Shown here piece after piece: positions 61,494 through 64,000 of a DNA stretch of 64,000 bases (position 1 is its first letter; every line of letters begins with the position of its first letter). The stretch comes from a virus. Under the pieces are notes generated by a model, which was given only the letters and a program-made list of their open reading frames with translations, did not search any database and was not told where the DNA came from. Made by a program: the position numbers and the translations under genes. Where the stretch lies: positions 1 through 64,000 of the IMG/VR virus record IMGVR_UViG_3300021963_000057; one strand, written 5' to 3'.

Positions 61494-61568
61494 GGGCCTA
61501 TAGCTTAATGGTAAAGCAGTGAACTCATAATTCATTGAGTCTAGGTTCAATTCCTAGTGGGCCCACCA
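61494..61568 (+). tRNA. tRNA with CAT anticodon, likely tRNA-Ile2 (lysidine type)
   Basis: Cloverleaf with GGGCCTA/TGGGCCC acceptor, anticodon loop CTCATAA, T loop GGTTCAA and encoded CCA; C4-G69 and C5-G68 pairs as in TilS substrates; G1-C72 excludes initiator tRNA. Confidence 0.9.
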
Positions 61569-62638: not shown

Positions 62639-63157
62639 ATGATTATTCGTGTGGTTAACTGTCCGGATAGAGACTTCAAACCCTTTATAGAAAGGGCAGC
62701 ACAGTTTTACGCCAAGGAACTAATACCCAATACACGCATAAGAAACAACTGTACAACAGAAATAAAGTTCTGTACAAAGATTAATGAATATGGTTTTGCA
62801 AGTATTGAAGATTACAATACCAGAAAACAACCTCGAAAATTCTTAATAGAGATTCATCCCAACCTTGGTTCAAGAAGAATACTGGAAACACTGGCACATG
62901 AAATGGTTCATGTGAAACAATACATCGAAGGTGAAACCAATGATGAATTGACCAGATGGAGAGGTAAGAGAGTTGATCCAGACAAAATTGATTATTGGGT
63001 TCAGCCATGGGAGATAGATGCTTATGGTCGTGAACCAGGATTACTTACAAAGTTTGCAATATCGGAACATTTGTGGGAAGTATTTGATGATTTTGTTGAT
63101 CCTTCCGGTCCAATAAATTGTTATCCTATTGCATGGAAATTAAAGAATGTCAGTTGA
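62639..63157 (+). CDS. Zn metallopeptidase-like protein (HExxH)
   Basis: TLAHEMVHVKQY..PWEIDAY; TAAATA at 62601. Confidence 0.75.
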   Translation: MIIRVVNCPDRDFKPFIERAAQFYAKELIPNTRIRNNCTTEIKFCTKINEYGFASIEDYNTRKQPRKFLIEIHPNLGSRRILETLAHEMVHVKQYIEGETNDELTRWRGKRVDPDKIDYWVQPWEIDAYGREPGLLTKFAISEHLWEVFDDFVDPSGPINCYPIAWKLKNVS

Positions 63158-63686
63158 AGCGGATAGATTTACTTACGGCCAAGGTAACATAAAGATTGTT
63201 ACAAATTTTCCAGGAAAAAAAGTCAAGTTAGGAAAATATTGTTCAGTTGCAGCAGATGTTCAAGCTTTTCTTGGTGGTAATCACAGAGTTGATTGGATAA
63301 CAACGTTTCCTTTTGGTCACATAAGCACAAGCGAAATCAATGTATCTAAAGTAGATGGACATCCAGGTACAAATGGTGATATCATTATTGGCAATGATGT
63401 TTGGTTAGGAACAGGATGTGTCTTAATGTCTGGTATAACAATTGGTGATGGTGCTGTCGTTGCTGCACATTCTCATGTTGTTAAAGATGTTGCACCTTAT
63501 ACTCTTGTTGGTGGAAATCCAGCAAAGCCAATCAAACTTAGATTCGAACAACATATTGTTGATGCATTAATGGAATTAAAATGGTGGGATTTAGATGTTG
63601 ATGTGGTAAAGTTAATCGTTCCGGTCTTGTGTGCTGAACCAAATTATGATACAATCCAAGACTTAATACAAAAATATAAAAAATAA
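63147..63686 (+). CDS. CatB/Vat-related hexapeptide-repeat O-acetyltransferase
   Basis: GKYCSVA, GGNHRVDWITTFPF, IIIGNDVWLG, ITIGDGAVVAA.S.V.KDV.PY..VGGNPAK.I..RF, LKWWD. Confidence 0.88.
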   Translation: MSVEADRFTYGQGNIKIVTNFPGKKVKLGKYCSVAADVQAFLGGNHRVDWITTFPFGHISTSEINVSKVDGHPGTNGDIIIGNDVWLGTGCVLMSGITIGDGAVVAAHSHVVKDVAPYTLVGGNPAKPIKLRFEQHIVDALMELKWWDLDVDVVKLIVPVLCAEPNYDTIQDLIQKYKK

Positions 63687-63700
63687 TTTCAAAAAACCGC

Positions 63701-63729
63701 TTGCCGAGGCTTAAAAGTTCCTATATAAT
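63701..63729 (+). promoter_or_regulatory. sigma70-type promoter of the leader ORF
   Basis: TTGCCG(63701)-17 nt-TATAAT(63724), A-rich upstream element; predicted +1 falls on the ATG at 63736. Confidence 0.7.
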
Positions 63730-63735
63730 AACACT

Positions 63736-63849
63736 ATGAAAAATATTAAACACATATCCTTATCGTTGCAGCCGGAGTATCGCACATTTAATTGCGCTGA
63801 TAGCTCATGGGCGATTACGACCGGGTTTTGTGTAAAGATGGAGAACTAA
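63736..63849 (+). CDS. Putative 37-aa attenuator leader peptide containing all 20 amino acids
   Basis: MKNIKHISLSLQPEYRTFNCADSSWAITTGFCVKMEN*; leaderless; 31 distinct codons; 3' part complementary to the terminator 5' arm. Confidence 0.65.
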   Translation: MKNIKHISLSLQPEYRTFNCADSSWAITTGFCVKMEN

Positions 63850-63872
63850 TACAGAAGTTCTAAAAAAGACTC

Positions 63873-63917
63873 CAAACACAAAACCCTAGACCTAAAAAAT
63901 CTAGGGTTTTTTGTTTG
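63873..63917 (+). terminator. Intrinsic terminator of the attenuator, competing with an antiterminator at 63823-63886
   Basis: AAAACCCTAGA(63880-63890)/TCTAGGGTTTT(63900-63910) plus TTGTTTG; GGGTTTTGTGT(63823-63833) can alternatively pair with ACACAAAACCC(63876-63886). Confidence 0.85.
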
Positions 63918-63939: not shown

Positions 63940-63987
63940 TTGCCAGAATCTTTGGTTCTGTTACAATACACACTGTTCTTTAAAAAT
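63940..63987 (+). promoter_or_regulatory. Second promoter followed by a boxA-like antitermination site
   Basis: TTGCCA(63940)-16 nt-TACAAT(63962) with extended -10 TG; TGTTCTTTAAAAAT(63974-63987) versus rrn boxA TGCTCTTTAACA. Confidence 0.55.
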
Positions 63988-64000
63988 TTGTTGTAGTTTA

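Follow-up and report, generated by a model that had tools for sequence, protein, structure and literature searches.

A candidate leader-peptide attenuator with all 20 amino acids ahead of the tRNA array of a T4-like phage

The element at the head of the tRNA genes

The stretch of DNA analysed here, referred to as the window, comprises bases 1-64000 (64,000 nucleotides, nt) of the 104,626-bp IMG/VR record IMGVR_UViG_3300021963_000057, and close to its 3' end it holds a compact element made of a promoter, a short open reading frame (ORF) and an intrinsic terminator, located directly ahead of a large array of transfer RNA (tRNA) genes. The virus is a T4-like myovirus, as indicated by its gp20-type portal, gp23-type capsid, large terminase and gp46-like nuclease; the closest cultured capsids, which belong to Methylophilales phage Melnitz and Pelagibacter phage Mosig, share 64% identity with its capsid protein, and the genome has a GC content of 37.9%. 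Bases 63001-78000 of the same record (contig L004) were used to read past the end of the window, and ARAGORN identified there 27 tRNA genes 3' of the window, all on the plus strand and covering all 20 amino acids, the first of which, tRNA-Gln, starts at 64004, i.e., 4 nt beyond the window end. A first-pass annotation of the window had predicted a phage tRNA array or tRNA-repair genes downstream, of which the array is indeed present.

All parts of the element lie on the plus strand. A consensus scan located promoter P1 at 63701-63729 (TTGCCG at 63701-63706, a 17-nt spacer and TATAAT at 63724-63729; 10/12 matches), and its hexamers are near-invariant among the relatives described below, with a variable spacer. 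The leader ORF (63736-63849, 37 codons plus TAA) contains all 20 amino acids, and since its ATG at 63736 lies 6 nt after the -10 hexamer, the leader mRNA is predicted to be leaderless. Within the ORF, segment 0 (63750-63760, codons 5-9), similar in sequence to segment 2, is able to pair with segment 1 in the minimum free energy (MFE) structure of the nascent transcript; it is followed by a central hairpin (63775-63806) that harbors the invariant GAGTATCGCAC ... TCATGG blocks, encoding the peptide EYRT ... SW, and by segment 1 (63823-63833, codons 30-33, GGGTTTTGTGT), the 5' strand of the antiterminator. The complementary 3' strand, segment 2 (63876-63886, ACACAAAACCC), overlaps the 5' arm of the intrinsic terminator (63873-63917), which is composed of a core stem (63880-63890/63900-63910), an extended A/U stem and a U tract reaching 63917. 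Segments 1 and 2 form a perfect 11-bp pairing that overlaps the terminator arm at 63880-63890, and the full transcript folds with an MFE of -53.5 kcal/mol (z = -5.5). The terminator was not among the calls of the consensus terminator scan, which accepts loops of 3-8 nt, probably because its 9-nt loop exceeds that limit; folding and covariation support the terminator.

These coordinates of P1, the 37-codon ORF, the 11-bp pairing and the terminator agree with those of the first-pass annotation, which had additionally proposed a supporting TGGAG pairing element; this is indeed present, at 63839-63843 rather than at 63838-63842. A small AGAACT/AGTTCT hairpin (63842-63861) spans the stop codon and is 85.9% paired, being specific to the lineage of the window and missing in diverged groups. 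Between the terminator and the first tRNA, the consensus scan placed a second promoter, P2 (63940-63967, TTGCCA-16-TACAAT), followed by a boxA-like motif, TGTTCTTTAAAAA (63974-64000), within a 26-mer that recurs identically at 64857-64882.

A family of elements with a conserved frame, composition and pairing

Relatives of the element were collected in three ways, namely through the upstream acetyltransferase, by two exact motifs, and with the gapped pattern GAGTATCGCAC...GAT...TCATGG. Once chance matches inside genes had been removed, the family consisted of 63 distinct elements, which encode 56 different peptides (31-44 amino acids) and all come from uncultured freshwater or estuarine T4-like phage contigs in IMG/VR. 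Wherever the contig was long enough, a tRNA gene was found 9-300 nt after the element, with a large array where the contig extends, and the first tRNA was tRNA-Gln in all contigs but one (L181, with tRNA-Ser). The gene upstream of the element varies among contigs while the tRNA array is constant; therefore, the element travels with the tRNA array and not with its upstream neighbour.

Beyond these contigs, blastn searches with the element alone, or with the element plus the first tRNAs, gave no match to the element among 50,697 cultured or deposited phage records, where the tRNA genes alone were matched. The core pattern had 87 matches in 185,579 prokaryote species genomes, a number equal to the chance expectation; 4 of the 87 also displayed the required downstream G-run and T-run, and none of these was a relative. 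In the one cultured phage screened for an analogue, a T4-like Aeromonas phage with a tRNA array, no comparable all-amino-acid ORF was present upstream of the tRNA groups, which indicates that the element is not a general feature of tRNA-bearing phages. Profile searches of Pfam and PHROGs with four diverse leader peptides returned no family at E <= 1.

The frame that runs through the invariant core is open in 63/63 elements and ends before the terminator. Among close relatives all insertions and deletions (indels) inside it are in frame (multiples of 3), and indels of 1-2 nt occur past the stop codon; the homologues thus keep the open frame, a point on which the first-pass proposal had been made to depend. 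The start codon, in a constant register 12-15 codons upstream of the core, may be ATG, GTG or TTG, and three solutions for initiation were recognized: a leaderless ATG 6 nt after TATAAT (the window and a diverged group, e.g., L212:6240-6356); a 25-30-nt A/U-rich leader followed by GTG or ATG; and a canonical GGAG located 7-8 nt upstream of GTG or TTG (e.g., L187, L184, L194, L182). The initial description of the leader as leaderless therefore holds for part of the family, the other members having a leader with or without a Shine-Dalgarno sequence. The in-frame indels and the three start solutions together point to selection on translation.

The codons themselves are poor. A codon index similar to the codon adaptation index gave 0.425 for the leader versus 0.689 +/- 0.045 for genes, and 0.06% of 36-codon gene windows score as low, as would be expected of a regulatory ORF that overlaps RNA structure more than of a protein-coding gene. 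Across the 56 peptides M1, EYRT and SW are the sole invariant residues, and the 11-nt GAGTATCGCAC and 6-nt TCATGG blocks are invariant even at wobble positions, arguing for a constraint at the RNA or DNA level rather than at that of the peptide. The blocks hint at an additional constraint, for example that of a pause site, binding site or arrest motif, and the central hairpin that carries them is possibly a pause hairpin.

The leader of the window contains 20/20 amino acids in 37 residues, 18 of them within codons 1-25, and uses 23 distinct codons in the first 25 and 31 in the 37, including several that are rare in this genome (GGG, 1% of Gly codons; AGC, 4%; ACG, 5%; TCG, 5%; CGC, 6%; CCG, 6%; GCG, 7%); a recount thus upheld the residue and codon numbers given at first, as well as the rarity of the G/C-ending codons. 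The chance simulation that had been advised gave a probability of 0.0015 for 20/20 in 37 amino acids under the genome amino-acid composition, and of 0.0013 for at least 31 distinct codons in 37-codon windows of the genes of this genome. Among 249 ORFs of 30-45 amino acids starting with ATG (484 with ATG, GTG or TTG) in the 104.6-kb genome, the leader is the sole one with 20/20, and about 0.4 complete ORFs of that size are expected genome-wide. In one genome alone this completeness is only suggestive, and it becomes compelling when the family is compared.

All 20 amino acids are present in 40 of the 56 distinct peptides, 19 in a further 14, and 18 and 17 in one each; diversity has accordingly been kept while the peptide drifts, as the first-pass annotation had asked of the homologues. 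Completeness is thus seen in 71% of peptides (40/56), and in 61% (14/23) of the diverged peptides with a PFIGSDNQ core, figures that are not formal probabilities, the sequences being related. The expected frequency of 20/20 is 0.04-0.24% under the genome amino-acid composition, 0.8-8% when the seven invariant residues are fixed and the rest is drawn from the flat composition of the family itself, and 2-11% for diverged lineages with all residues shared with the window fixed. Empirically, 0.18% (11 of ~5,950) of the other 30-45-amino-acid ORFs in the 1.84 Mb of fetched phage DNA are complete, and in that same count so are 36 of ~50 leader ORFs.

The family comprises roughly ten lineages, grouped by eye, with different flanking parts, most of them having complete members. 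Three parts of the peptide are exchanged from one lineage to another, namely 11-15 residues at the N terminus, the middle (NC.D.. or PFIGSDNQ) and 5-15 residues at the C terminus, and rare residues change place: His is found in an N-terminal HKP, in LHISKP, or in AH after SW; Cys occurs in NC/FC or directly before EYRT; and Val, Pro and Ala likewise move. Codon diversity is retained in the homologues as well, with synonymous codons more varied than expected in 58/58 distinct ORFs (mean, +3.0 codons), and the leader of the window uses 23 of the 26 phage-encoded anticodons versus 17 for gene windows (P = 0.0024). This comparison provides strong support for the all-20 composition as a selected property and not as a chance outcome in a single genome.

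The 3'-terminal 10-15 nt of the ORF can base-pair with the terminator's 5' arm and flank in every lineage, each with sequences of its own: GGGTTTTGTGT pairs with ACACAARACCC in one, and in others GGGGTTTTTGAAGA pairs with TTTTCAAAAACCTC, GGGGGTAGTGGAAC with GTTTCACAACCCTC, GGGGTATGTGGAAC with GTTTCACAAACCCC, and GGGGTCTTATGT with ACATAAGACCC. To count covariation, the 63 elements were aligned with MAFFT without fitting to any structure (alignment A2), and double-change cells were compared with 500 shuffles. For the antiterminator 1:2, 93.2% of cells are paired, 6/11 pairs are double-changed, and 35 double-change cells were observed versus 9.7 +/- 2.4 after shuffling, a number reached in 0/500 shuffles; for the terminator 2:3 the corresponding values are 88.7%, 6/11, and 56 versus 17.2 +/- 3.4 (0/500). 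Thus, the antiterminator helix covaries as strongly as the terminator itself. Sliding the antiterminator partner by 1-3 columns lowers pairing to 31-58%. The compensatory changes sought in the 63823-63833/63876-63886 helix are therefore present in the wide alignment; among close relatives alone there are no double changes in this helix, which hardly varies there, and the signal comes from diverged members. The pairing of segments 0 and 1 is kept in 79.9% of cells, with 2/8 pairs double-changed and 3 double-change cells versus 2.1 +/- 1.0 (169/500 shuffles), its crude duplex z-score averaging only -1.1; segment 0 resembles segment 2 in each lineage. The central hairpin is 79.5% paired, with 1/11 pairs double-changed and 1 cell versus 0.0 +/- 0.2 (19/500 shuffles), and its pairs are uninformative because the hairpin is almost invariant.

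When the 63 elements were folded in stages, segment 1 was paired with the 5' part of the ORF (the first 60 nt) in 79% of them before segment 2 exists; with segment 2 present, the 1:2 pairing was the minimum-energy structure in 95%; and in the complete transcript the terminator won in 90%. Folding of the alternatives, another check advised at the outset, hence reproduced the succession of structures that an attenuator should show. At equilibrium, even when a ribosome footprint was masked, the terminator formed in every case, so that any control must be kinetic and co-transcriptional, as in trp. Across lineages segment 1 ends 0-22 nt before the stop codon, which in L183 is located inside segment 1; by its geometry, segment 1 would be placed for occlusion by a ribosome finishing the ORF.

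A P2-like site follows the terminator in most members and is absent in the L183 lineage (L183, L206, L219, L232 and L233; at least 9 contigs). Its layout (L183:4316-4540, minus strand) is sequentially organized as the promoter TTGACA-17-TATACT, the Shine-Dalgarno sequence AGGAAG, ATG, ORF, terminator and tRNA-Gln. The leader ORF (L183:4382-4477, minus strand) has 31 codons and still contains all 20 amino acids, and the terminator, of 12 bp plus a U tract, is followed 9 nt later by tRNA-Gln and then by tRNAs for Ser, Ser, Ile and Cys. On that strand, a scan of L183 3700-4700 revealed no further promoter-like site, and boxA is absent. With this single promoter, the first tRNAs can be transcribed only by read-through from P1, which is the classical attenuator arrangement. 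Contigs from RNA libraries that bridge the terminator (L004 811-1001, 860-974 and 887-1241) are weak evidence of read-through, as DNA carry-over is possible and the assembled contigs give neither RNA ends nor strand nor level, uncovered stretches being uninformative.

A proposed ribosome-dependent attenuator and its alternatives

Leader-peptide attenuation is a textbook mechanism; to our knowledge, known leader attenuators read one or few related amino acids and control biosynthetic or aminoacyl-tRNA synthetase genes. The family described here shares with the trp, his, leu, thr and pheA attenuators of Escherichia coli and Salmonella a short ORF adjacent to the promoter and provided with start signals, three mutually exclusive pairings, and an intrinsic terminator, located in this case before the tRNA genes; the antiterminator that excludes it covaries, segment 1 is suitably placed, and in the proposed model the position of the ribosome would likewise decide which hairpin forms. 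Conversely, there is no single-amino-acid codon run, every amino acid occurring mostly once or twice, segments 0 and 1 are both located inside the ORF, and the downstream genes are tRNA genes carried by a phage instead of biosynthetic enzymes. In place of a regulatory codon run, 19-20 different amino acids are present in 54/56 peptides, and it is this feature that makes the element a new variety of leader attenuator. What is new is hence the codon-run-free, all-20 leader attenuator before phage tRNA genes, its architecture being that of known leader-peptide attenuation; a full-text literature search found no description of a leader peptide before phage tRNA genes or of an all-amino-acid leader.

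Other regulatory systems resemble the element in part. Multivalent attenuation of ilvGMEDA and ilvBN(C), by Leu, Val and Ile codons, also reads more than one aminoacyl-tRNA through one leader, with the difference that three related amino acids are clustered in runs there and all 20 are spread over 31-44 codons here. T-box riboswitches likewise tie a choice between terminator and antiterminator to tRNA status upstream of translation-related genes; however, they bind uncharged tRNA directly and have no ORF, whereas here a translated frame is conserved. The arrest-peptide leaders tnaC, secM and ermCL have in common with the element a short leader, a conserved peptide motif and control of downstream expression, but in these systems a specific nascent chain stalls the ribosome at a defined codon, and some of them work via Rho or translation. 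As in rrn-type antitermination by NusB/NusE, a boxA-like motif is found, both after P2 and after the second internal promoter of the array, being here a separate element downstream of the attenuator; it appears to resemble the rrn boxA consensus of E. coli. A search of all Rfam families at E <= 10 returned 13 matches, all of them below threshold and on the terminator only; these included Thr_leader (RF00506; 26.7 bits versus a gathering threshold of 55), to which the terminator hairpin alone aligns, and no T-box.

Our preferred interpretation, held with somewhat more confidence than doubt on the basis of these sequence comparisons, is that the element is a ribosome-dependent transcription attenuator heading the tRNA operon, with a leader that would report on the whole aminoacyl-tRNA pool, and that it probably tunes tRNA transcription to the ability of the cell to translate. 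The transcript from P1 would begin with the short translated ORF, whose last codons (segment 1) can pair with the 5' arm of the strong terminator (segment 2), a pairing that would exclude the terminator hairpin 2:3. A ribosome that is not delayed would be on or beside segment 1 at the time when RNA polymerase synthesizes segments 2 and 3, so that the terminator would form and P1 transcripts would end at about 63917. If the ribosome is delayed at an upstream codon, segment 1 would remain free, the antiterminator would form first, and the polymerase would continue through P2 and boxA to transcribe the tRNA genes; in the absence of any ribosome, segment 0 could sequester segment 1 and termination would again be favoured. 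Given all amino acids and rare, varied codons, translation time would report on the whole aminoacyl-tRNA pool and not on one amino acid, and a likely outcome would be a feedback in which transcription of the phage tRNAs is raised when any tRNA limits translation. We infer the direction and size of the response, as well as the signal sensed.

Several observations weigh against this interpretation. The amino acids of the leader are mostly represented by single codons, whereas classical attenuators need codon runs; segment 1 lies at a variable distance (0-22 nt) from the stop codon; the invariant EYRT...SW / GAGTATCGCAC...TCATGG core is left unexplained by an attenuator model; and both the segment 0:1 pairing and the central hairpin, in which pairing is kept, lack covariation support. 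A stall in or beside the antiterminator strand should not induce, and the sensing region in the strict sense, where a stalled ribosome would keep segment 1 free, therefore holds 15-20 amino acids, in 22-29 codons, and not always 20: Gly and Val occur only within segment 1 in the leader of the window, and Trp, His and Ala often only in or beside it in other lineages. Amino-acid diversity in this region is high but not complete. Furthermore, completeness is favoured and not obligatory, as 16/56 peptides are without one to three amino acids, and the P2-like site that follows the terminator in most members implies that the switch adds to tRNA transcription and is not its sole gate.

The invariance of EYRT and SW in 56/56 peptides, with codons fixed even at wobble positions, is precisely what a pure census of the tRNA pool leaves unexplained, and it would be accommodated by an attenuator that responds to another signal: EYRT...SW could act as an arrest peptide sensing a small molecule or a ribosome-targeting factor, or the switch could sense transcription-translation coupling or ribosome availability. 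The evidence for the switch itself (the lineage-specific pairs, the covariation and the staged folding) applies equally to this explanation, which we nevertheless regard as unlikely, since it does not account for all 20 amino acids being kept while the rest of the peptide is replaced, and, in its arrest-peptide form, wobble invariance points to a constraint on RNA or DNA and not on the peptide. The conserved frame and peptide motif, together with the common presence of Cys, would also suit an independent micropeptide gene with its own promoter and terminator, in which the pairing serves mRNA stability or translation control and not tRNA transcription, and in most members P2 would then be the own promoter of the array. 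Such a gene is quite unlikely, as its codon usage is extremely poor for a protein gene, its N- and C-terminal parts are swapped wholesale between lineages, the four leader peptides searched matched no Pfam or PHROG family, and there would be no reason for the all-20 composition or for the covariation between the last codons and the terminator arm; moreover, in the L183 lineage P1 is the sole promoter for the first tRNAs.

Finally, the compact promoter-to-terminator unit, its very stable and conserved structure (z = -5.5) and the invariant 11-nt and 6-nt blocks would be compatible with the ~180-nt terminated transcript being a trans-acting or dual-function small RNA, like rnTrpL/peTrpL of Sinorhizobium, and its location before the tRNA genes would then be fortuitous or of secondary importance; trans functions have been documented for attenuator RNAs (PMC7298713, PMC7968998). 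No target was identified for such an RNA, the in-frame indels and the three start solutions speak of selection on translation, and a role in trans could coexist with the attenuator model instead of competing with it; as an explanation in its own right, we consider it very unlikely.

Going further than the attenuator interpretation, the element might constitute a pan-tRNA sensor of the phage, in which the loss of any tRNA during infection would lead to more transcription of a complete replacement set, a tentative idea that we regard as doubtful. The causes of such a loss could, speculatively, include host anticodon nucleases, other tRNA-depleting defences, starvation, or the shut-off exerted by the phage itself. 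If true, the sensor would represent an inducible counter-defence circuit built on an all-20 leader peptide. Irrespective of defence, an attenuator whose leader is selected to contain all 20 amino acids, located before a complete phage tRNA set, would be the first general sensor of translation capacity of the leader-peptide type and the first cis-regulator to be described for such an array; it would also offer synthetic biology a compact part that reports global elongation stress. The subject bears on why large phages carry tRNA arrays and on how these are deployed against tRNA-targeting defences or host shut-off, and the 200-nt element makes the tRNA-array question directly testable.

Neighbouring genes and features of the array

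Directly upstream of the element lies a hexapeptide-repeat acetyltransferase gene (63147-63686), the product of which is ~40% identical to Streptococcus phage proteins annotated as Vat/streptogramin O-acetyltransferases; this gene precedes the element in some relatives only, with a different upstream gene in others. A solitary tRNA-Met (61494-61568) is located 2.2 kb upstream of the array, with five ORFs of 44-179 amino acids in between. Within the array there are two protein ORFs, L004:3130-3627 (165 amino acids) and L004:4777-5400 (207 amino acids), the latter with motifs that, by eye, resemble those of calcineurin-like metallophosphoesterases. The second copy of the 26-mer with the boxA-like motif (L004:1857-1882) follows a second promoter-like site in the array and precedes tRNA-Glu, and the motif occupies the same place in most relatives.

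Between tRNA-Gln and tRNA-Ser(GCT), the region L004:1152-1258 (genome 64152-64258) ends in ...CCGCCA and received no ARAGORN call; in four metatranscriptome contig sets its depth is far above that of the rest, reaching up to ~1,500, and tRNA-Ser(TGA) occupies this position in several relatives. The region may hold a gene resembling tRNA-Ser(UGA) whose anticodon loop is unusual, or encode some other stable RNA. Further on, L004:1353-1444 (genome 64353-64444) encodes a 92-nt tRNA with a long extra arm, called as tRNA-Ile (anticodon TAT), which is kept in most relatives, and the leader holds the ATA codon that this tRNA would read.

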